NCBI GenBank assembly: GCA_964609855.1
Contig: CAZSTB010000002.1
Coordinates: 15,541-79,540, forward strand
Direction: 5' to 3'
Source: an uncultured Bdellovibrionales bacterium
GTDB lineage: Bacteria > Patescibacteriota > Minisyncoccia > Moranbacterales > GWC2-37-73
Length of the DNA: 64,000 nucleotides
The notes beneath the pieces were generated by a model. That model saw only the letters and a list, made by a program, of their open reading frames with translations. It did no database searches and was not told the DNA's origin. The position numbers were made by a program, and so were the translations under genes. How positions within the stretch are numbered: the stretch's first letter is position 1; each line of letters starts with the position of its first letter. Shown here piece by piece: positions 1,567 to 60,243 of the stretch.

Positions 1567-1657
1567 TTGTCATTCTCGCGAAAGCGGGAATCCAGTTGTA
1601 ATTTAAATCGCTAGAAATAAATACGGGCTGGATCCCGGATCAAGTCCGGGATGACAA
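1567..1657. repeat. MITE/REP-like structured element A, bounded by TTGTCAT...ATGACAA and containing the hairpin ATCCCGGA-TCAAG-TCCGGGAT
   Basis: The 9-nt terminal inverted repeat and an 8-bp perfect stem are seen directly in the sequence. It sits between the Rrf2 regulator and iscS. Confidence 0.5.
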
Positions 1658-1668
1658 TGAAGAAGTTA

Positions 1669-2058
1669 TTATTTTACTAAATCGTTTAATTTAATTTTAT
1701 TTAAAGTCTTTTTTATCTGAAGTCCTAGTGTAATCCAAACAATACTAGAAGGACACTTGTGTTGACTTGCGCAAAACTTTCCAGCGCATCTCATTGGAGC
1801 AATCTCTCCATCAAGAATTTCAATTATTTCATCCACGGAAATTTTCTTCGGCTCTCGCACTAGAACATACCCGCCCATTTTACCCTTTGTACTTTCCACA
1901 ACATTTCCGTCTCTCAATTTTCCCATCAGACGTTCGAGATATTTTTGCGAAATCGCTTCCTCATTTGCAATCTCACCGATTGATTTCTGATTTGGATAAC
2001 ACTGAGCCAAGTTGGTCATTGCTTTGAGGCCATATTCGGCTTTTGTTGAAAATCGCAT
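1669..2058 (-). CDS. Rrf2-family transcriptional regulator (IscR-like)
   Basis: MRFSTKAEYGLKAM...GEIA is the Rrf2 N-terminal wHTH signature, and the gene sits at the head of an iscS-iscU operon. The ORF track extends to 2079, but the MRFSTK start at 2058 matches family N-termini. Of the three Cys typical of IscR, only CAGKFCASQHKC is present. Confidence 0.8.
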   Translation of the reverse strand: MRFSTKAEYGLKAMTNLAQCYPNQKSIGEIANEEAISQKYLERLMGKLRDGNVVESTKGKMGGYVLVREPKKISVDEIIEILDGEIAPMRCAGKFCASQHKCPSSIVWITLGLQIKKTLNKIKLNDLVK

Positions 2059-2072
2059 ATATATTTTGATGG

Positions 2073-2155
2073 TTGTCATCCTGAACTTGTTTCAGGATCT
2101 CGTTCAGGCTTGTTTGCCCCCTTCTGAATTCCAGATCTCTTGTACAGCATGACAA
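2073..2155. repeat. MITE/REP-like structured element B (TTGTCATCC...GCATGACAA) with hairpin ATCCTGAA-CTTGT-TTCAGGAT and nested GATCT/TTCAG inverted repeats
   Basis: Seen directly. It is the same family as element A but with compensatory stem changes, and it abuts the start codon region of the Rrf2 gene. Confidence 0.5.
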
Positions 2156-2295
2156 TGCTTATTAATCCCTACTTATTTAGTATGCTTTAAATATATCCGA
2201 TACTTAAATTGCTGTCAACTGTTGCTTGTTTTCTATTAAAATGGTAGTATTTTATGAAGTTGTTTGTTACCACCAACCAAAAGGAGAGTGATCTA

Positions 2296-2679
2296 ATGAA
2301 AGGCGATAATGAGGCATTTGAAACCCTAATGCAAGAAATGTTGAACAGAAAGTTCGTTATTTCGCGTGTTGATTCTTTTGTAGATGTATTCACTGCTTAC
2401 AATAAGAACTACTGGGAAAGAAATACACTTATCATAGTGCAAGTAAGCAGAGAGGGAAACATCCTAGTGCTCTTAAGCGGTACCTCCATCAGGAATCTCA
2501 GTCAAAAGCAAATAGATGCAGTGATGTGTGAATATATGGAACATTTCGACCTAAATGATGATGGCCAACTGCTCCATGTCATGCACCTTGATGCCAATGA
2601 TGCCCCTGATGCACGCGAGATTGATCGCGTAGCCAACATAACCACAAGAGCATACAGCCTTGCGGCAACAAACGGTTAA
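2296..2679 (+). CDS. hypothetical protein (no recognisable domain)
   Basis: The ORF has an AAGGAG Shine-Dalgarno about 8 nt upstream of the ATG at 2296; the track's upstream M at 2254 lacks an RBS. A hairpin terminator follows at about 2705-2740. Confidence 0.5.
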   Translation: MKGDNEAFETLMQEMLNRKFVISRVDSFVDVFTAYNKNYWERNTLIIVQVSREGNILVLLSGTSIRNLSQKQIDAVMCEYMEHFDLNDDGQLLHVMHLDANDAPDAREIDRVANITTRAYSLAATNG

Positions 2680-2740
2680 CACATAATACGGTGTTTTCAA
2701 AATCAAAAGGTCGGTAGCAATTTGCTCCTGGCCTTTTATC

Positions 2741-2768
2741 TTGCCCTCCATCCCCTATTTGTTATAAT
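2741..2768 (+). promoter_or_regulatory. sigma70-like promoter (TTGCCC-16-TGtTATAAT, extended -10) for the nuclease gene
   Basis: Read directly from the sequence; it lies about 60 nt upstream of the ATG at 2829. Confidence 0.4.
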
Positions 2769-2828
2769 GAATAATAAGTAAAAATAACCTAAAAGCTAGA
2801 GGCTAACTACTGAAAGCAAATTTAATCT

Positions 2829-3959
2829 ATGCGAATTTCATATTCAGCGCTCGAATCATTTAAAAATTGCTCCCTGAAATACAAATTTCAAAATATTGAT
2901 AAGATTAAAGAACCGAAATCCAAGGAAGCAGTTTTTGGAACACTTATTCATGCAACCTTAAAATTCATTCACGCGCCGCAACTTATTCCGCCAAAATTAG
3001 AGGAAGCTTTAGATTATTTCTCCAAAAACTGGAACAGTGATGTTTTTGAGGATGAGTTGGAAGACAGAAATGCTTTTGCACAGGGTGTGGCCATTATCCA
3101 GGATTATTATAAAAAAAATAACCCGTCAGATTTCACAATCGTGGATCTTGAGAGTCGTTTTCAGATAGAAATTGAGGACAAGGAAAGGCATTCTTCGCAT
3201 ATAATCTCGGGTATTGTCGATCGCATAGATAAAACTGAGGACGGATATGAGATTATCGATTATAAGACTACTAAGAAAATGCCTTCACAGGAAAAAGTGG
3301 ACGAGGATCTTCAGCTTTCCGTTTATCTGAATGCATTTTTAGCTCGCTATCCCAAAGAAGCTGACAAATTGGATAAAGTTACGGTAAGTCTATATTATCT
3401 CAAGCATGGCGTAAAATTGAGCTCTACAAGAACCTTAGCACAATTACAAAATGCCAAACAGCTTTTCTTGGACGTAATTGCGGAAATAGAAAAGGGAGAA
3501 TTTGTTCCAAATGTTACACCACTGTGTGATTGGTGCGGTTTTCAAAAATTTTGTCCGATGTGGAAGCATAAATTTAAAGATGAACGAAAAATTGATACCG
3601 AGGAGGTAAACGCCGCAATCAGCGACTACATCAACTTAAAGTCTGCCATCACATCCACGAAACTGCAGCTCATGCAGCTTCAGGAAAAAATTGCGAAATA
3701 TATGGAACAAGAGGGTGTAGAACGGGTCTTTTCTGAAGAAGGTATAATTGCGCAAACTTTGCGTAAAACCTATAAGTACGATGAGAAACAATTGAGAGAA
3801 ATTCTTGAGCCCATAGATAAATGGGAATCTGTCTTGAAAGTTGATGGCATAGCGCTTAAAGGAATTATGGGTGTGCTTTCGCCAGGTGTCAGACAAGATG
3901 TTGAAAGAGCAAGAGTTTTAGATAAACAGTCTAAGAGCTTGACTGTAAAGAAAAAATGA
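2829..3959 (+). CDS. PD-(D/E)XK nuclease, Cas4/RecB-like, with a C-terminal Cys cluster and a ~130-aa C-terminal extension
   Basis: It has the motif IVDRIDKTEDGYEIIDYKTTKK (D...EIIDYK core), followed by CDWCGFQKFCPMW (a three/four-Cys Fe-S-type cluster as in Cas4/AddB). An extra helical tail continues to residue 376. Confidence 0.75.
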   Translation: MRISYSALESFKNCSLKYKFQNIDKIKEPKSKEAVFGTLIHATLKFIHAPQLIPPKLEEALDYFSKNWNSDVFEDELEDRNAFAQGVAIIQDYYKKNNPSDFTIVDLESRFQIEIEDKERHSSHIISGIVDRIDKTEDGYEIIDYKTTKKMPSQEKVDEDLQLSVYLNAFLARYPKEADKLDKVTVSLYYLKHGVKLSSTRTLAQLQNAKQLFLDVIAEIEKGEFVPNVTPLCDWCGFQKFCPMWKHKFKDERKIDTEEVNAAISDYINLKSAITSTKLQLMQLQEKIAKYMEQEGVERVFSEEGIIAQTLRKTYKYDEKQLREILEPIDKWESVLKVDGIALKGIMGVLSPGVRQDVERARVLDKQSKSLTVKKK

Positions 3960-4011
3960 TTCAGATCAATTGATTCCTTAACAATGCAATATTATCTCAA
4001 GGGGGTGTACA

Positions 4012-4419
4012 ATGTCTAAGCGCATCAAAAAAAGAAAATGTAGGAGTATGACGTTTAGAAGGATAAGAACTGGCAAGAAAAGAACAGTAAAGCAACAGGA
4101 AATTATTCAAGAAAAAGACTACAGGTTTATTTATCGTAAAAAATATTACTTTAACTACCTTTTATTTCCATTGCTCATTGTTCTTATTTTTGTAGTTTCT
4201 GCCAACAAGACTTCATCTGGCTTTTTAACTTCCATGAAGCTTCTGGCACTTTCCGCAATGGGCTTTTCGATTTATATGAATTATCTGAATCGTGTAAGGA
4301 AAGATAAGGTTAACAATCTGATAAATTTCGAATTAGCGGCAACGATTACGACTTTTATAAGCTATTTCGGATTAGCCTGTAGCGCCATATTGATTGCCTG
4401 TATTATCATTTTTGCGTAA
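4012..4419 (+). CDS. small membrane protein with a highly basic N-terminus (KRIKKRKCRSMTFRRIRTGKKR) and 2-3 TM helices
   Basis: The ORF lies just downstream of the nuclease, and hydrophobic segments are evident. No family is recognised. Confidence 0.45.
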   Translation: MSKRIKKRKCRSMTFRRIRTGKKRTVKQQEIIQEKDYRFIYRKKYYFNYLLFPLLIVLIFVVSANKTSSGFLTSMKLLALSAMGFSIYMNYLNRVRKDKVNNLINFELAATITTFISYFGLACSAILIACIIIFA

Positions 4420-4541
4420 CAATTTTTTGAAGATTACTAAAATTAAGAGGTCTGATGATAAAGGTTTAATTTCCATTATTTGACCAAGCTAAATTAGATA
4501 AGAAAACTAAGAGGCACTCGCCACTAGTGAGCAACAAAAAA

Positions 4542-4566
4542 AGCTGATCAACTGATCAGCTTTTTA
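4542..4566. terminator. bidirectional rho-independent terminator (AGCTGATCA-AC-TGATCAGCT palindrome flanked by A-run and T-run)
   Basis: Perfect palindrome with poly-A on one side and poly-T on the other, lying between convergent genes. Confidence 0.6.
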
Positions 4567-5274
4567 AAATTTCACATATTTCTCCCAACATTCATACAGA
4601 GCCTTGGTGGCTCGCAGATCGCCCACGTTGTAGCGCGCAATATCTAAAAATCTTTGCTCTTTAAAAAGCATTCCTACATCATCTCCGGTAATCCCTTCAT
4701 TCTTTGGACTCTTAATACCAAATGCTCGCGACCAAAGATGCAGATTCCCTTTTCTTCTCACGCTCCCATAAAAAGTTAATTGATCAAGTAAATCAACATG
4801 TCTAGCATTTCGTGGCTGACTGGTGAGATAGCGATTTGCCATCAAATTCTTCGTAGGACGAATACCGCAAATCGCACTTCGCACCGTTAAAAATGGAACA
4901 TCAAATCCCCGTCCATTAAAGCTAATGAACTCGTCATATTTTTCAACCAGATTCCAGAATTGAACAAGCATTTCTTTTTCACCCAAAACTCGATACTTTA
5001 TATTGCCCTCATCGAAATTGGTAATATTGCCGTCAGGTGCCTGGAAATAAACGATGCCCTTATCTCTCTCAATATCGTAAACACCAATTGCCACAATTTG
5101 TCCTGTAAGCGGAGAAAAACCTAGACCGTTTTTTACTTCTGTTAGGCTCTTTTCATAGTCTTCTTCACCTTCAGATTCTTTTTTTATCCAACGGGTAAGA
5201 ACATCTTGAGTCGTCTGATCAAGCGTGTCAAAATCTTCCCCAATTGTTTCGATATCAAAAACTATCTTTCCCAT
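4564..5274 (-). CDS. DnaQ-fold 3'-5' exonuclease related to the PolB exonuclease domain (COG3298-like)
   Basis: The N-terminal FDIETIG acidic Exo-I motif, the Exo-II-like FNGRGFDVPFL region, and a size of about 236 aa all fit this family. Confidence 0.7.
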   Translation of the reverse strand: MGKIVFDIETIGEDFDTLDQTTQDVLTRWIKKESEGEEDYEKSLTEVKNGLGFSPLTGQIVAIGVYDIERDKGIVYFQAPDGNITNFDEGNIKYRVLGEKEMLVQFWNLVEKYDEFISFNGRGFDVPFLTVRSAICGIRPTKNLMANRYLTSQPRNARHVDLLDQLTFYGSVRRKGNLHLWSRAFGIKSPKNEGITGDDVGMLFKEQRFLDIARYNVGDLRATKALYECWEKYVKF

Positions 5275-5385
5275 AAATTGAATTTTCTTAATTATAGCAT
5301 ATGATAGCTATTGTTTTCATTTTTGTGGTAAAATGTGGATGACTTTTTTGTTCTTACACAAGTGAATCATACAAGGAGATGAATC

Positions 5386-5967
5386 ATGGTAAACCTAATG
5401 GAAGATATTAGAATGTGGTACTCATTTTTGAGCAATTCCCCGGTTTCAATCGTAGCAAAAAAATATTTTTTCGATGGCAAGAGCTACGTAGGCGGTGAGA
5501 TAGTTCGCGCCAGTCACGCAAAAGCTGAACATCATGATAGAAAAATTGAAGAAATTCTTGGTCTTACAGATTTTGATTTATTGCCGCTAGAACAAGCTAA
5601 TAAGATTCTTGCGGATGATATTCAAGTCATGCTAACTAAGAAGCCTATTAAATATAGGGTTGAAAGCGTTACGCATAAAAACGGTAAAACCGTTTGGAAA
5701 TCGGTATCAAAGTGGCCAATGATGCACGGAGATTTTCCCTACGGTGTGCTTGGTATTTCCATCGATATCACCGAGCAGGTAGAAACAGAAGAACGTTTAA
5801 AACTGCTCAATGTTCAGGTTGAAAAATTACTTTTCACGATCAAAGCACCTCTTGAAAAGTTAGATTTAATCCTAAGGAAATTACGGTGTCAAAAATTTGA
5901 ATTTGCAAAAAGGATTTCTGAAGCCGTTAATCTTATCAGGGCAATTGAAAAAAAGAATCAGGTTTAA
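5386..5967 (+). CDS. PAS-domain-like protein
   Basis: The central region (…GKTVWKSVSKWPM…GVLGISIDITEQ) resembles a PAS/PAC fold. There is no output domain. Confidence 0.4.
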   Translation: MVNLMEDIRMWYSFLSNSPVSIVAKKYFFDGKSYVGGEIVRASHAKAEHHDRKIEEILGLTDFDLLPLEQANKILADDIQVMLTKKPIKYRVESVTHKNGKTVWKSVSKWPMMHGDFPYGVLGISIDITEQVETEERLKLLNVQVEKLLFTIKAPLEKLDLILRKLRCQKFEFAKRISEAVNLIRAIEKKNQV

Positions 5968-5984
5968 CTGCTTTCTTATCATGG

Positions 5985-6016
5985 AAAACAGCCTTTCAAA
6001 TGAAAGGCTGTTTTAA
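5985..6016. terminator. bidirectional hairpin terminator (AACAGCCTTTC-AAA-TGAAAGGCTGTT + TTTT)
   Basis: Seen directly; it lies between convergent genes. Confidence 0.55.
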
Positions 6017-6101
6017 AAAGTTTATTTTTTGAATTGGCAACAATGTAAAAGTTTTGTACCGCTAAAAGGGTCCGATGCTCGCCCAGGCTCTTAATACCTT
6101 T

Positions 6102-6794
6102 TTATTTAATCGTCGTACCAATGAATTTCTCTTCGTCTAGATACTTTTTGAAATTATTTAAATTTTTACCATTCAAGATTACCACTTCCATTCCCTCTTG
6201 GCCTGCCATCTTTGAAGCTACTGGATCAAAGGGAAGATTTGAACTTGGGTTCCATTCATCACCGACTATTTTTTGAAATTCTGGCCAGGAGATATTTTCA
6301 ATCTTCTTAGCATCTTCATTAAATCTCGGGTCTTTATCACAGACATAGTCAATATTGGAAAGATTTGCAATTTTAGTTGCGCCAAATTGCTTAGCTAACA
6401 AAACCGCAATGTAATCAGTAGAATTTCCTGGTCTATATCCAGCTGCAATCAAGATGGACTCCTTTGCCTTCAGAAAACTTTCCAAGTCGTAAGGATTTTT
6501 ATTGATTGTTGGATGAGCGTGCTTCTTGAAGATAGTTCGTAAGAAATGTGCATTTAGTCTGGTCGCATGGATTCCTATCCAATCCTTGTCTTCACTATCG
6601 ATGTTGCCAATCTGCACACCAGCTTCAACATACTTTCTAGCAAGTCTTCCGCCACCAGTAATGATAATGAACCTATAACCGTTTTCGATTTCTTGCTCAA
6701 TTAGTTGTTTGAAATCCTTAACAAATTGCCAATCAATCTCTTCCGGCACAATAAGCGACCCACCAAGTGAAATGATAACTGTTTTTTTATTCAT
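6102..6794 (-). CDS. pyrH: UMP kinase, archaeal type (amino-acid kinase family)
   Basis: ISLGGSLIVPE, FIIITGGGRLARKYVE, GIHATRLNA and AGYRPGNSTDYIAVLLAKQFGA match archaeal PyrH motifs (GGSVLVPE / VVGGGKLARKYIE / GIQITRANA / GGTHPGHTTDAVAALLAE) rather than the bacterial form. Confidence 0.8.
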   Translation of the reverse strand: MNKKTVIISLGGSLIVPEEIDWQFVKDFKQLIEQEIENGYRFIIITGGGRLARKYVEAGVQIGNIDSEDKDWIGIHATRLNAHFLRTIFKKHAHPTINKNPYDLESFLKAKESILIAAGYRPGNSTDYIAVLLAKQFGATKIANLSNIDYVCDKDPRFNEDAKKIENISWPEFQKIVGDEWNPSSNLPFDPVASKMAGQEGMEVVILNGKNLNNFKKYLDEEKFIGTTIK

Positions 6795-6860
6795 TGCAGT
6801 TTAGGAAAAAATATTACTTTTTCAATTTTAGCATCATCGAAACGATGAATCAATTGAGCG

Positions 6861-7562
6861 CTAAATTCTATCTGGATAATTAGAGAATATTCCGTCAACT
6901 CCTATTTTTTTCATTTTTTCTATATCTTTCAGGTTGTTTACTGTATAAACAAACACCTTAAAGCCACTCTTTCTCATCAAATGAATTTTTTTTATTGAAA
7001 CTGCGCTAAGTTCCATATTGATAACATAAGCATTCAATTTGCCAGCAATATCCAAAATATTTTCAAGCCTGTATTTTAAAAATCCTTTAATTCTTCTTTT
7101 GGCTAAAATTCCGATTCTTATTTCGCTATTTATTTGCCGAAACTTTTCAAGCTCATTCCAATTAAAAGAAGAAACGATGAAATCCTCCACTGACCAATTC
7201 TTCTCCGTAATGTATTGCTTGATTATATCAGCAACAGGTTTCACACAATCGCAGCATTTAAGTTCAATATTTACTTTTACGCGCCTATTGATTAAATTCA
7301 AAACCTCAGATAAGGTCGGAATTTTTTCGCCCCCACTTACGCTGCATAACTTCAATTCTTTTAGCGAAAAGTCTTTCACTAAACCTCGGCCGTCAGTTGT
7401 TCGGTCCACTGAAAAATCATGAATCACTACGACCTCCCCGTCTCTACTCAATTGCACGTCGAACTCAACCATATCAACCTTTAAATCAATGGCCCTGGAA
7501 AATGATGCAAGTGTATTTTCTGGCGCATAGCCGCAAGCTCCGCGATGTCCAATCTTAAGCAT
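6861..7562 (-). CDS. glycerophosphodiester phosphodiesterase (GDPD family)
   Basis: The HRGACGYAPENT…MVEFDVQLSRDGEVVVIHD signature is present. The likely start is MLKIGHRG at 7562, which avoids overlap with the upstream gene. Confidence 0.75.
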   Translation of the reverse strand: MLKIGHRGACGYAPENTLASFSRAIDLKVDMVEFDVQLSRDGEVVVIHDFSVDRTTDGRGLVKDFSLKELKLCSVSGGEKIPTLSEVLNLINRRVKVNIELKCCDCVKPVADIIKQYITEKNWSVEDFIVSSFNWNELEKFRQINSEIRIGILAKRRIKGFLKYRLENILDIAGKLNAYVINMELSAVSIKKIHLMRKSGFKVFVYTVNNLKDIEKMKKIGVDGIFSNYPDRI

Positions 7563-7878
7563 TTCTATATTTATTGATGTGTTCATCTGCCTGCGCTTTT
7601 GTTTCATGCAATTTAGTAATTGTTTGATTTATTTCATCCTTGATTCCGAGAAACATTCCCAAGCCTTTCTGAAGTTCATCCAGACCTTTTTGATATTTTT
7701 CTATCACGTCCGTACTCGCATTTTCGCCGACTTGTTTTTCTAGAAGTTCCTGCCCGATTTGCATGTGGTTTTCTATTTCTTCAATTTCTCCATTAATTTT
7801 TTTTAAATCTTGCGCCAGTCTTTCATTTATTTCTTCAAAAGTTTTAGGTTGCTCGCTATTGTCCATAATTTTTTTCAT
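7555..7878 (-). CDS. small coiled-coil protein
   Basis: Heptad-rich sequence with no recognisable domain. Confidence 0.35.
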   Translation of the reverse strand: MKKIMDNSEQPKTFEEINERLAQDLKKINGEIEEIENHMQIGQELLEKQVGENASTDVIEKYQKGLDELQKGLGMFLGIKDEINQTITKLHETKAQADEHINKYRNA

Positions 7879-8477
7879 TTCTTTAATGCTAAAGTGAACC
7901 ATTCTTTCCCACGCGAAGTAAATTTGTTCTCATAAACTGTTTTAAATTTCTTGCCAGCTACATTTTTGATATCCTCTGGTAAATAATAATAGAAGACTCG
8001 TTTTCCGTATTCATCATCTTTTATCACCTCCCTGTATGCACCATATTTCAGAGAGATATAAATAACCCCACCCTTATTTAATTTCTCGTAGATTTGTTGA
8101 AAGATATTCTTAAGAGCTTCTTTATTGAAATGCGAAAGTGATACAAAAGAATAAACTATATCAATTTGCTGCAAGGAAAAAAATTCGAAATCTTCCGCGT
8201 CAATAATAATAAAGCTGCCATGAGGTGCAGTTTGGCGTGCAAGTTTAATCATGGAATATGAGCTGTCGATACCTATATACTGATTTGTTCTCTCTAAAAT
8301 TTCTCTTGCATCCCTACCGTTACCGCAACCGATTTCCAAGACGAAAGGATTGAATTTCCCAACAAAATAAAAAGCTCTATCTATGTCTTCAATGCGAGGA
8401 CCAACACAATTAAATTCCACAGCCATTAAGTCTGCACTTTTGTCGTAGGTTTCTTGTGTGATCAGCTTTTTGTCCAC
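7875..8477 (-). CDS. class I SAM-dependent methyltransferase
   Basis: Motif I VLEIGCGNGRD is present. Confidence 0.75.
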   Translation of the reverse strand: MDKKLITQETYDKSADLMAVEFNCVGPRIEDIDRAFYFVGKFNPFVLEIGCGNGRDAREILERTNQYIGIDSSYSMIKLARQTAPHGSFIIIDAEDFEFFSLQQIDIVYSFVSLSHFNKEALKNIFQQIYEKLNKGGVIYISLKYGAYREVIKDDEYGKRVFYYYLPEDIKNVAGKKFKTVYENKFTSRGKEWFTLALKK

Positions 8478-8559
8478 ATCGTTGAAATTAAAATTTCATC
8501 TGAAACATTGCTTGATCTGAAACAAATTTATTTTAAAGCTTTTTTGAAAAATATACAAA

Positions 8560-9036
8560 TTAAACTGCATCTCCATTTTCCAAATATGCAACCGTGTTAT
8601 TCTCTAAAGCAAAAAAGCAATGTGGAATCCTTTTTATTTTTCTTGGGCCGAATAATTTCGAGGCTTCTTCCATAGTCACAAATTTGAAATCAAGCAATTC
8701 AGTCTCCTGTAGCCTTATATTGCCAATTTGTTCACTATTCAACATCCCACCAAAAAACACAAACTTCAAATTATCACCTTCAGTAGTTTTACTGTAATCG
8801 AGGCACAGCATTTTCTGGATTTCAATATCTAAACCTATTTCCTCTTTTATCTCACGAATCGCGCCATCCTTTGGGGATTCGCCAGATTCAACAGTTCCGC
8901 CTGGCAAAAGCCATTCGTCTTTATAGTTTGGTTTCACAACCAACATTTTGTTTTCTTCATTCAAAAACAGCACATCTGCCCCCATCGGCTTTTTCGCTAA
9001 ACTATTGTAATAATCCTTTTTTGATAATAATTCCAT
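8560..9036 (-). CDS. NUDIX hydrolase
   Basis: Nudix box GGTVESGESPKDGAIREIKEEIGL is present. Confidence 0.8.
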   Translation of the reverse strand: MELLSKKDYYNSLAKKPMGADVLFLNEENKMLVVKPNYKDEWLLPGGTVESGESPKDGAIREIKEEIGLDIEIQKMLCLDYSKTTEGDNLKFVFFGGMLNSEQIGNIRLQETELLDFKFVTMEEASKLFGPRKIKRIPHCFFALENNTVAYLENGDAV

Positions 9037-10372: not shown

Positions 10373-10466
10373 AAACCTAGTATATCAAATTCTACAGTTT
10401 TGTCAGTATTTTTTTAAGACTGGATTTCACCCGCTAGAGGATAGGTTTCCGTTAGATTCGTATTAG

Positions 10467-10492
10467 ATCCTGAAACGAGTTCAGGATGACAA
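10467..10492. repeat. solo copy C of the hairpin repeat (ATCCTGAA-ACGAG-TTCAGGAT-GACAA)
   Basis: The stem is identical to element B with a different loop. It lies in the divergent region between the Ada-like gene and rpmA. Confidence 0.45.
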
Positions 10493-22675: not shown

Positions 22676-22856
22676 CGTTATTACTATTTATTATTTAAAT
22701 CATGGATCCCCTCCGCGCAGGTATAGCAAGTCAGGGATGATAATTTTTTATTTTGAAAATTTAATCATTGGAAATTGAGATTTGAAAATTCTATGTTTAA
22801 TATATATTTTTCATTTTTTGCAAATACTATCATGCTCGATAGTGTGATAGTGTTTA

Positions 22857-23870
22857 CTATTTTTTATACTGTTTTTGGTAGTATTCTTGATACTCCCCGC
22901 TCTTCACTGCTTTCCACCAAGCCTCATTTTCAACAAACCATTGGACGGTTCTTTTGATGCCTTCTTCGAACGTTATCTGAGGCTCCCAGCCTAGCTCATT
23001 CTTGATTTTATCAAAATTGATAGCATAGCGTTTATCATGACCCTTTCGGTCTTCAACATATTCAATCCAACTCTCATCGCGACAAAGAAGCCCTAGAATT
23101 GTTTTTACAATTTCAATACCCGGCTTTTCACCATTTCCTCCCACACAATATGTTTCTCCAATTTTCCCCTTATGAATAATTGTGTCAATTGCCCGACAGT
23201 GATCTTCAACATGAAGCCAATCCCTAATGGCAGACCCGTCTCCATAAACCGGAATCTTCTTTCCTTCCATTAAATTCGTGATAGCTAGCGGAATCAGTTT
23301 TTCCGGAAAATGATATGGTCCATAGTTGTTTGAACAATTTGAAATGGTCACAGGTAGTCCATGAGTGTGGAAGTAGGCCCTCACCAAGTGATCTGAACCG
23401 GCCTTAGAGGCGCTATATGGCGATCTGGGATCATACGGCGTAGTCTCATTGAAAGGCTCGTCTTGAGGCGCTAGAGAACCAAAAACCTCATCTGTAGAGA
23501 CGTGGTGGAAGCGTTTATTTCCTGCCTTCTTGGCCGCTTCGAGCAAGGTGTGCGTTCCCATCACATTTGTGCGCACAAAGGCCGCTGAGTCCAAAATAGA
23601 GCGGTCTACGTGCGATTCAGCGGCAAAATGAACGACCACGTCAGATTCTGCCACCAATCCATCCACCAACTGGGCATCGCAAATATCCCCTTTCACAAAT
23701 TTGTGTCGAGGATTGCTTTCCAATTCCTTCAAATTCTCAAGATTTCCCGCATAAGTCAGCGCATCCAAATTGATGACCTCATAATTAGGATAAGTTTTCA
23801 AAATGTGATGAACAAAATTGCTGCCGATAAATCCAGCTCCACCGGTTATTAATAGCTTCATAATTTTCAA
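22857..23870 (-). CDS. rmlB: dTDP-glucose 4,6-dehydratase
   Basis: MKLLITGGAGFIGSNFVHH…YxxxK are the SDR motifs, and the length fits. Confidence 0.9.
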   Translation of the reverse strand: MKIMKLLITGGAGFIGSNFVHHILKTYPNYEVINLDALTYAGNLENLKELESNPRHKFVKGDICDAQLVDGLVAESDVVVHFAAESHVDRSILDSAAFVRTNVMGTHTLLEAAKKAGNKRFHHVSTDEVFGSLAPQDEPFNETTPYDPRSPYSASKAGSDHLVRAYFHTHGLPVTISNCSNNYGPYHFPEKLIPLAITNLMEGKKIPVYGDGSAIRDWLHVEDHCRAIDTIIHKGKIGETYCVGGNGEKPGIEIVKTILGLLCRDESWIEYVEDRKGHDKRYAINFDKIKNELGWEPQITFEEGIKRTVQWFVENEAWWKAVKSGEYQEYYQKQYKK

Positions 23871-23915
23871 TTTTCAATGTTCAATTTTCAATGAATTTTC
23901 AATGTTCAATTAATA
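23868..23915. repeat. short imperfect tandem repeat of TTTTCAATG(TTCAA), followed (23930-23975) by inverted ATTGA/ATTGAAAA copies
   Basis: Seen directly in the rmlC-rmlB intergenic region. Confidence 0.5.
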
Positions 23916-23981
23916 AATGTTTGAAAATTTAAAATTGCTCATTGATTGTAAATTGTGAATTGATAATTGAAAATTTTTAAT

Positions 23982-33620: not shown

Positions 33621-34778
33621 TCAGTGTTCCATCTGGTCGATGGTTTGACTGGAAATTTGGATGCCGGCAGGTTTGGCACTTTGCTTACCCACCGGAGTTT
33701 CTTTTTTCTGAATCGTTTTGGCGCGCTTTTCAGCGTACCAAGTGGTGATGTCAGGAGTGGCCTCATAGGCAGCAATGATGCCGCCAAAAGGCCCAAGACC
33801 AGTGAACAGATTGGCCGTAAGACCAAGGCTGAACCTGTTCTTGTATTTCACCCTTATCGATGGCGCAAAACCGGTGAAGATGTCTCCGTCTAAGAAACCG
33901 ATACTCGCACCTGCTCCGGAAATAACCTTGTAATCCTTGTTAAGCTTATGTTCCCAGAATATTCCCGGGCCCACGAAGCTGTCATGGTCAAAGATACTTC
34001 CGTCCACCTGCAGCGTCAACCTGTTCTTATGGTTCAGGATATGATCGAACTGCACGTGCGGCGTGAGCATGACGCCATCTTTGCGGTTCATGTCGAACCT
34101 CCAGAGAATTCCCATGTCTGCCTCAAACGAGTTGCGCAGACCAAGACCTCTGTAGTATCCGACATGCGGACCAAGAGCATAGTAGCCCCAATCCGCCCCG
34201 CTGGGAGCGGCGCCGTAATCACCTCGGAGGCTTGCGCCGATACCGAAGTTTTCTGCCTTCTCATATCTTGTGAACCACTGGAGCCATTTCAGGTTTCCCC
34301 AAACGCCCCAGGTGTCGTGTTCGAAGTTCTTCCAGGCTCCGGTCCAGAACGAGACCTCAGGAAAACTTCCCCAAGTCCTTTGCTCTGGATTTTCGAATTC
34401 CGGAAGCGCTTCAGAAGCAGCTGGCGCGGGTTGAACTTCCGCTGGAGGTTCCTCTTTTAACAGAGGAGCTTCGAGCGGTGCAGCAGAAACAGTAGGCGCC
34501 TGCTCCTTAACTTCAGGAACAATCGTCGGCTCCGTCACTTGCTGCTCAACCACGGCAGGCGCTTGTTCCTTAACTTCAGGAATAATCACCGGCTCAGCTA
34601 CTGGCGTCTCAACCACTGCGGGTTGTTGAGGGATACTTTTGCCTCGCGCATATTCTGCGAGAGCAGCGTCCCTTCTTTTTGCTCTGACAGACTGCAGATC
34701 CTTACACGGATCTTCAGCTGCCGCCACGACACTGACCGAAGCCAGCATCAACAATATCGCCATGAGTTTTTTCATCAT
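33621..34778 (-). CDS. GC-rich secreted protein: signal peptide, Pro/Glu-rich tandem repeats (PEVKEQAP x2), then a W/G/Y-rich beta-rich domain
   Basis: MMKKLMAILLMLASVSVVAAA is the signal peptide. The domain has alternating aromatic/glycine patterning. The stop overlaps the downstream gene's start (ATGA). Confidence 0.6.
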   Translation of the reverse strand: MMKKLMAILLMLASVSVVAAAEDPCKDLQSVRAKRRDAALAEYARGKSIPQQPAVVETPVAEPVIIPEVKEQAPAVVEQQVTEPTIVPEVKEQAPTVSAAPLEAPLLKEEPPAEVQPAPAASEALPEFENPEQRTWGSFPEVSFWTGAWKNFEHDTWGVWGNLKWLQWFTRYEKAENFGIGASLRGDYGAAPSGADWGYYALGPHVGYYRGLGLRNSFEADMGILWRFDMNRKDGVMLTPHVQFDHILNHKNRLTLQVDGSIFDHDSFVGPGIFWEHKLNKDYKVISGAGASIGFLDGDIFTGFAPSIRVKYKNRFSLGLTANLFTGLGPFGGIIAAYEATPDITTWYAEKRAKTIQKKETPVGKQSAKPAGIQISSQTIDQMEH

Positions 34779-60107: not shown

Positions 60108-60243
60108 AAAACCTAAATCCTAACTATTAAATCCCAATGAAATTTGAATGACAAAATCTTTTTTTGATTTTTTTCATTTATTAGTCATTGGAAATTTAGA
60201 TTTAGGATTTAATAAATTATTTATAATTGGATAAATCTGTGCA

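Follow-up and report, generated by a model that had tools for sequence, protein, structure and literature searches.

CGTC REPs are small repeats with a terminal CGTC tag, which in many of them is replaced by TGTC (Di Nocera, De Gregorio & Rocco 2013, PMC3733652). Their stems of 8–9 bp have first pairs that are almost always complementary A/T, their loops measure 4 nt (family 1) or 5 nt, and their short tail is mostly CCA. They occur mainly as 'HH' dimers, with the tags outside, which are often heterodimers and have spacers of 20–100 bp. These repeats were found in five phyla, mostly in Alphaproteobacteria, and dRS3 of Neisseria corresponds to CGTC-1. The class has no associated tyrosine transposase (PMC3733652, Table 1).

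A nuclease that acts on repeats of this kind has been described. SsnA, a GIY-YIG enzyme of 94 aa, binds NTS (CGTCATTCCCGCGMAVGCGGGAATCYRG; oriented dRS3) and the related Ssn-related motifs (SRM) as single-stranded DNA and cuts a few nt upstream of the motif (Chenal et al. 2025, PMC11893778). Bases directly 5' of the palindrome are important for cutting, the C directly 3' of it is important for binding, and mutagenesis showed that the sequence of the stem is needed as well as its shape. No RNA binding was observed for SsnA. Genes of the ssn type are typically flanked by the motif, and four Ssn/SRM pairs were demonstrated. An analogy with insertion sequences was raised by the same authors, who did not show mobility (PMC11893778).

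Tagged hairpins in the window and their closest described counterparts

The DNA analyzed here is a stretch of 64 kb, called the window throughout. It contains four hairpins, confirmed as real and clean, of the form TTGTCAT + 8-bp stem + 4–5-nt loop + C. Hairpin 1 (copy 1; 1567–1595, + strand) is TTGTCATTCTCGCGAAAGCGGGAATCCAG, that is, TTGTC-ATTCTCGC-gaaa-GCGGGAAT-CCAG, and is CGTC-1/NTS-like. Its palindrome, found at 1572–1591 by an inverted-repeat scan with one mismatch allowed, has a 4-nt loop and one T.G mismatch. Hairpin 2 (copy 2; 1629–1657, - strand) is TTGTCATCCCGGACTTGATCCGGGATCCAG, or TTGTC-ATCCCGGA-cttga-TCCGGGAT-CCAG; hairpin 3 (copy 3; 2073–2101, + strand) is TTGTCATCCTGAACTTGTTTCAGGATCTC, or TTGTC-ATCCTGAA-cttgt-TTCAGGAT-CTCG; and hairpin 4 (copy 4; 10465–10492, - strand) is TTGTCATCCTGAACTCGTTTCAGGATCT, or TTGTC-ATCCTGAA-ctcgt-TTCAGGAT-CTAA. 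These three have an 8-bp stem and a 5-nt loop. Read on the forward strand, their palindromes are ATCCCGGA-tcaag-TCCGGGAT at 1632–1652 and ATCCTGAA-cttgt-TTCAGGAT at 2078–2098, and ATCCTGAA-acgag-TTCAGGAT at 10467–10487, all three recovered in a scan for perfect inverted repeats. An earlier reading made from the sequence only (hereafter the sequence-only reading) had recognized them as 8-bp stems with 5-nt loops at 1632–1657, 2073–2098 and 10467–10492, and the inverted-repeat scan found all three. The flanks TTGTCAT and ATGACAA that it had described are likewise present on copies 2, 3 and 4.

All four copies carry TTGTC 5' of the palindrome and a C directly 3' of it, and the segments 2073–2100 and 10465–10492 are 96% complementary over 28 nt. 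Copy 4 is a singleton; the spacer that holds it, upstream of rpmA (L27), separates divergent genes. When folded as single-stranded DNA and compared with shuffles, the four hairpins gave z values from -2.5 to -4.5, with z = -2.5 for copy 1 (-5.6 kcal/mol), -3.8 for copy 2 (-8.4 kcal/mol) and -4.3 for copy 3. The combination of GTCAT with a stem of at least 8 bp was observed 4 times in the window versus 0.34 expected, the maximum in 300 shuffles being 3. Searches of the window against Rfam (gathering threshold) and for tRNAs gave no match. The same organism is represented by two independent short-read assemblies, both of which stop exactly at hairpins, one (L001) corresponding to window positions 1632–8773 and the other (L002) to positions 1–2102, as is expected of repeats; hairpins of this type break short-read assemblies. 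A degenerate copy had also been proposed at about 22702–22741. This segment (- strand) has GGATCC...GGGATGAtAA in common with the hairpins, but it was missed by every hairpin scan and formed no stable hairpin, as its fold did not exceed that of shuffles (z = +0.59); it can be regarded as a doubtful relic at best.

Hairpins 1 and 2 make up element A (1567–1657), a 91-bp 'HH' heterodimer with the TGTC tags outside that occupies the spacer between rrf2 and iscS. The element had been taken for one hairpin bounded by terminal inverted repeats; its left end, 1567–1595, is itself a fourth hairpin, so that the element is a dimer. The two full units are separated by a non-conserved spacer of 33 nt (40 nt between palindromes). 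Element B (2073–2155), 83 bp long, is inserted in the 5' leader of rrf2 and consists of hairpin 3 and 57 nt that end in inverted TTGTCATGC. The inverted terminus ascribed to element B is thus present, but its right half (2099–2155) contains no hairpin (z = -0.17, folding versus shuffles). The partner hairpin is decayed or absent, and a decayed partner has no folding support. A 93-bp unit (10400–10492), bounded by TTGTCAG…ATGACAA and close in size to A and B, may have copy 4 as its right end; no hairpin was found at the left end of this possible unit.

The anatomy of the window copies was compared with that of the described families. As in CGTC-1 and CGTC-2 REPs, they have the TGTC variant of the tag (4/4), an 8-bp stem, and A-T and T-A first pairs. 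Other traits shared with CGTC REPs are the loop, 4 nt long in copy 1 and 5 nt long in copies 2–4, the CCA tail on copies 1 and 2, the intergenic location, the lack of a transposase nearby, and the organization of element A as an HH heterodimer with a spacer within 20–100 nt. By contrast, the host is a member of Moranbacteria (Patescibacteria), copies 3 and 4 differ in their CTC/CTA tails and AT-richer stem, and element A joins a loop-4 unit to a loop-5 unit in a 'hybrid' dimer. CGTC REPs number tens to thousands per genome; the density in this one window is modest, at 4 copies per 64 kb.

The published SRM pattern, HGTCWYN(0-2)YYVSBRHN(0-5)WNVSBRGN(0-2)RNCYNB (PMC11893778), was observed twice in the window (copies 1 and 2) versus 0.06 expected; copies 3 and 4, whose TGAA stem is richer in AT, did not match it. 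Copy 1 is one base from an NTS of the CGTCATTCCCGCGMAVGCGGGAATCYRG type, and the GTC 5' and the C 3' of the window palindromes are at the positions critical for cutting and binding by SsnA. Unlike the SRM/NTS systems, the 64-kb window yielded no GIY-YIG/Ssn gene in regular-expression and profile HMM searches, and its copy density is low compared with the >200–300 copies of the genomes highlighted in PMC11893778. As regards the dRS3/NIME arrays of Neisseria (ATTCCC-N8-GGGAAT), copy 1 reads ATTCTC-N8-GGGAAT with the same flanks, and the relative L124 has an exact ATTCCCGCGGAGGCGGGAAT. Membership in dRS3 was nevertheless rejected, since copy 1 departs from the definition by one mismatch and the other copies have other stems; in addition, there are no mosaic RS arrays and the phylum is a different one. 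In their anatomy, the window copies fit CGTC REPs. The proposal of a REP/MITE-like repeat family stands, for a family that was already known: its prior description as CGTC REPs, Neisseria dRS3/NTS and SRM had been missed.

Insertion polymorphism and regulation in the rrf2-iscS-iscU operon

The gene for the Rrf2 regulator (1669–2058, - strand; PF02082) and that for the IscS/NifS cysteine desulfurase (330–1553, - strand; PF00266) flank element A. In a homolog search, the closest homologs of the window IscS were from named Candidatus Moranbacteria/Moraniibacteriota. Two in-frame ATG codons compete as the start of rrf2, one at 2058 and another at 2079 that falls inside hairpin 3 and lengthens Rrf2 by 7 codons. 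The exact 129-aa product beginning MRFSTKAEYG is on record, and no product identical to the 136-aa ORF starting at 2079 is; the start of rrf2 is therefore likely to be the ATG at 2058, outside the hairpin. The sequence-only reading, which had placed an element exactly at the Rrf2 start, is corrected on this point. The practical value of these observations is for annotation: hairpins create spurious start codons and ORFs, of which the 136-aa 'Rrf2' is one example and a 60-aa ORF (1973–2155, - strand), a spurious coding call that reads …EILKQVQDD… through the hairpin, is another. In relatives, Rrf2 has been annotated with lengths of 136 and 140 aa, which suggests that the start-codon artefact occurs there too.

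Orthologous loci of Moranbacteria relatives were compared with the window, as the sequence-only reading had proposed, and the empty sites it had envisaged were found. The rrf2-iscS spacer is 115 nt long in the window, with element A, versus 8 nt, and empty, in L123 and L124/L125, whose IscS proteins are in both cases 88% identical to that of the window. The rrf2 leader is also empty in these relatives and in L126. In L123, L124 and L126 a conserved box abuts the ATG, whose place next to the rrf2 ATG is taken in the window by element B, which separates the two. Since close relatives have empty sites, both A and B are insertions, and the operon that received them, rrf2-iscS-iscU, belongs to a Moranbacteria genome.

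Other relatives showed the rrf2-iscS spacer filled in a different manner. In L126 it holds a different heterodimer, found also in L127, the contig of which begins within the spacer, leaving the rrf2 leader outside. The first hairpin of this heterodimer corresponds to window hairpin 2 except that a C:G pair has become T:A, a compensatory change, and the second is of the ATCCTGAA type, not of the GAAA-loop type. In L128 the spacer contains an unrelated AT-rich inverted-repeat element. Within the same operon, the iscS-nifU spacer of L124/L125 (5237–5352) carries an A-like tags-outside heterodimer formed by the exact dRS3-type ATTCCCGCGGAGGCGGGAAT and ATTCCGGGCTTGACCCGGAAT. Filled, empty and alternatively filled alleles are thus present in one operon, which makes it material for how such repeats move. 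As a separate observation, the rrf2 leader of L128 contains another, different palindromic insert (…TCTCGACTTATCTGCCGAATGGCAGATGCGCTCGAGA…) at 2400–2478, in the place that element B occupies in the window.

Filled sites show about 10–15 extra non-conserved nt on each side, and no clean insertion junctions were seen. No signal of target-site duplication was detected in 66 dimers, nor at the filled sites. A MITE of the DDE type was considered in view of the terminal inverted repeats and was rejected, as target-site duplication was not seen in either set.

Rrf2 regulators bind inverted repeats, and the hairpins adjoin rrf2. On these grounds the hairpins could be operators bound by an Rrf2 dimer that autoregulates rrf2-iscS, an alternative that had been raised for this locus. 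However, both A and B are missing from orthologous loci with an 88% identical IscS, the half-sites differ among copies, and the identical hairpin is found in unrelated contexts in more than 15 phyla (see below). The empty sites in orthologous promoters refute the operator reading, to which we assign a very low probability, and hairpins of this kind are to be counted among the sequences that can be mistaken for operators.

A better candidate lies further upstream. A promoter-like site for rrf2 was identified at 2190–2218 (- strand; TTGACA-17-TATATT, 11/12 matches), and its TTGACA and -10 region are kept in relatives, all of which show upstream of rrf2 the TTGACA and a -10 hexamer followed by ATGTATACTAAATTAGTAGGGATTAAT. 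Right after this hexamer, at 2170–2182 (- strand), the window has the conserved palindrome TACTAAATAAGTA, which in relatives reads TACTAA-A-TTAGTA. It is present in L123, L124, L126 and L128 and is shared by all the Moranbacteria relatives examined. As judged from its sequence, position and conservation, this palindrome fits the role better than the hairpins and is a likely candidate for an Rrf2 autoregulatory operator.

A second possibility is that A and B function as RNA, in the form of transcribed hairpins that would stabilize the upstream mRNA, attenuate read-through or set the expression of rrf2 versus iscS. Both elements are within the transcript predicted from the promoter at 2218–2190, and CGTC REPs are found mainly in spacers of co-directional or convergent genes, RNA roles having been proposed for them (PMC3733652). 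Against this, no intrinsic terminator (GC-rich stem plus U-tract) was found at any hairpin in positions 1–2600, both orientations of the hairpin occur, copy 4 lies in a divergent spacer, and relatives manage without the hairpins. Moreover, the conserved asymmetric tag and the 3' C are what a single-stranded DNA nuclease reads, and SsnA does not bind RNA (PMC11893778). We therefore consider a role as RNA elements unlikely. The most likely status of A and B at rrf2-iscS is that of neutral passengers. They may have side effects on the leader of rrf2, which gains 83 nt between operator and start codon as well as an additional in-frame ATG, and on the RNA between the rrf2 and iscS cistrons.

Distribution across phyla, stem covariation and neighboring GIY-YIG genes

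The distribution of the hairpin was investigated by searching TGTCATCCTGAA-N5-TTCAGGATC in one genome per species (596 Gb). The hairpin was present in at least 120 stretches, which represent more than 15 phyla. With 21 bases fixed, we estimate that about 0.3 matches would be expected by chance in 596 Gb. Among the matches listed, lineages of the CPR were Patescibacteria including Gracilibacteria, Saccharibacteria, Moraniibacteriota and Nomurabacteria, and other lineages included Alpha-, Gamma- and Deltaproteobacteria, Bacteroidota, Elusimicrobiota, Melainabacteria, Spirochaetes, Chloroflexi, Armatimonadetes and Dependentiae. Sequences of 32 nt identical to copy 3 were present in MAGs of Alphaproteobacteria, Gammaproteobacteria and Spirochaetia.

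Among the matches listed, the conserved loops were CTTGT, TTTAT, CTTGA and CTCGT, and the base 5' of TGTC was mostly T, positions further out being random. Random outer flanks indicate that the repeat unit is the hairpin of ~28 nt and not a longer element. In 135 instances of the ATCCTGAA type the tail was C followed by T (79%). Neighboring hairpins in the matches listed were arranged with the tags outside in 64 of 96 pairs, with a typical gap of 8–41 nt, and were mostly heterodimers like element A. The tags-outside heterodimer of element A is the commonest architecture among the at least 120 loci.

Covariation was assessed in hairpins from these loci selected by tag, loop and closing ATC, a selection in which complementarity of the inner stem played no role. 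For stems other than ATCCTGAA, all six inner pairs were complementary in 62 of 86 hairpins, which comprised 15 different arm pairs. In the 67 unique hairpins, 97.4% of cells paired and double changes were found in 6/6 variable pairs, a level reached by 0 of 500 shuffles and nowhere near approached in slid registers. The compensatory difference between CGGA/TCCG and TGAA/TTCA, from which the sequence-only reading had argued for selection on structure rather than sequence, is real. Covariation over the 67 unique hairpins upholds the argument from compensatory changes, but the conclusion drawn from it is too simple: the stems fall into distinct subfamilies that recur, in which tag, loop and 3' C are conserved, and SsnA reads sequence too (PMC11893778). 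The presence of just four copies in 64 kb might suggest chance palindromes in AT-rich intergenic DNA. This explanation is refuted by the shuffle tests, the recurrence across phyla and the covariation, and its probability is negligible.

Genes located next to the hairpins were also analyzed. A GIY-YIG profile was built from four small ORFs beside hairpins and, when used in a search, detected a GIY-YIG ORF in 7 of the 120 loci listed, with PF01541 as a single domain and a length of about 80–105 aa. The five full-length ORFs (L070, L076, L080, L086 and L097) were all bracketed within about 10–40 nt by two tags-outside hairpins; one of these genes, that of L070, is from a Patescibacteria MAG. The label 'Ssn-like' is used here on the basis of the match of the bracketed ORFs to Pfam PF01541, not to cd10448. 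Among the best 120 of 895 homologs of a CPR Ssn-like protein, none was named Moranbacteria. The TGAA-stem variant thus appears to show, in five other genomes, the hairpin-ssn-hairpin arrangement of PMC11893778, and this AT-rich stem variant, which is missed by the published SRM pattern, brackets Ssn-like genes in several phyla.

The identity of the bracketed gene bears on whether the hairpins could be REPs mobilized by a RAYT, a Y1 transposase of the IS200/IS605 type, in the manner of GTAG REPs/REPINs. The window elements do resemble GTAG REPs/REPINs and the BIMEs of E. coli in being small intergenic hairpins with an asymmetric tag, in forming inverted dimers and in lacking target-site duplication. 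Yet their tag is TGTC and not GTAG, no Y1 transposase accompanies them, and the gene found between hairpin pairs encodes a GIY-YIG protein and not Y1. In addition, the arms of the dimers are non-identical, so that no long REPIN hairpin is possible, and the CGTC class is without tyrosine transposase (PMC3733652). Mobilization by a RAYT is hence highly improbable.

Anatomy, cross-phylum recurrence, covariation, GIY-YIG bracketing elsewhere and insertion polymorphism agree in assigning the hairpins to a described family. Our best explanation, in which we place high confidence as a joint statement, is that they are members of the CGTC-tagged REP superfamily (also SRM; Neisseria dRS3/NTS) inserted in a Moranbacteria isc operon. 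CGTC/SRM repeats are thereby extended to Moranbacteria, a modest extension to CPR bacteria.

By analogy with SsnA (PMC11893778), the hairpin would form on single-stranded DNA and be bound by a nuclease of the Ssn family of GIY-YIG enzymes, which would cut the strand a few nt 5' of the tag. The architecture of the short dimers suggests that they could be gene-less derivatives of a hairpin-ssn-hairpin unit, and they might spread in trans or by recombination, without target-site duplication. We propose only tentatively that the hairpin-ssn-hairpin arrangement is a unit resembling an insertion sequence, mobilized by its single-domain GIY-YIG single-stranded DNA nuclease of ~100 aa, with the dimers as its gene-less derivatives. 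If this were true, it would constitute a class of transposons moving via single-stranded DNA, without target-site duplication, and its activity would extend over more than 15 phyla, the CPR among them. The mechanism could in that case be studied on alleles already available in nature, as one and the same junction of the Moranbacteria isc operon is filled in some genomes, empty in others and differently filled in yet others.

Other repeats and features of the window

A second, unrelated family of AT-rich intergenic inverted repeats was observed at 60114–60211 and 22767–22783 of the window and at 2890–3000 of L128 (…AAATCCTAA…CCAATGAAATTT… / …ATTGGAAATTTAGATTTAGGATTTA). Its motif ATTGGAAATTNAGATTT gave 3 matches versus 0.44 expected. 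The rrf2-iscS junction of L128 is filled by an element of this second type, and the junction is therefore hit by two different families of small elements.

The window also contains a long imperfect AT-rich inverted repeat at 23857–23980, with AATTTTCAATG-like units and arms of 55 nt that are 76% complementary, located in the spacer upstream of a GDP-mannose dehydratase-like gene. Between 32001 and 36000 the GC content rises up to 0.49, versus about 0.38 elsewhere, and a 63-bp tandem duplication is found at 34489–34614, within a coding region.
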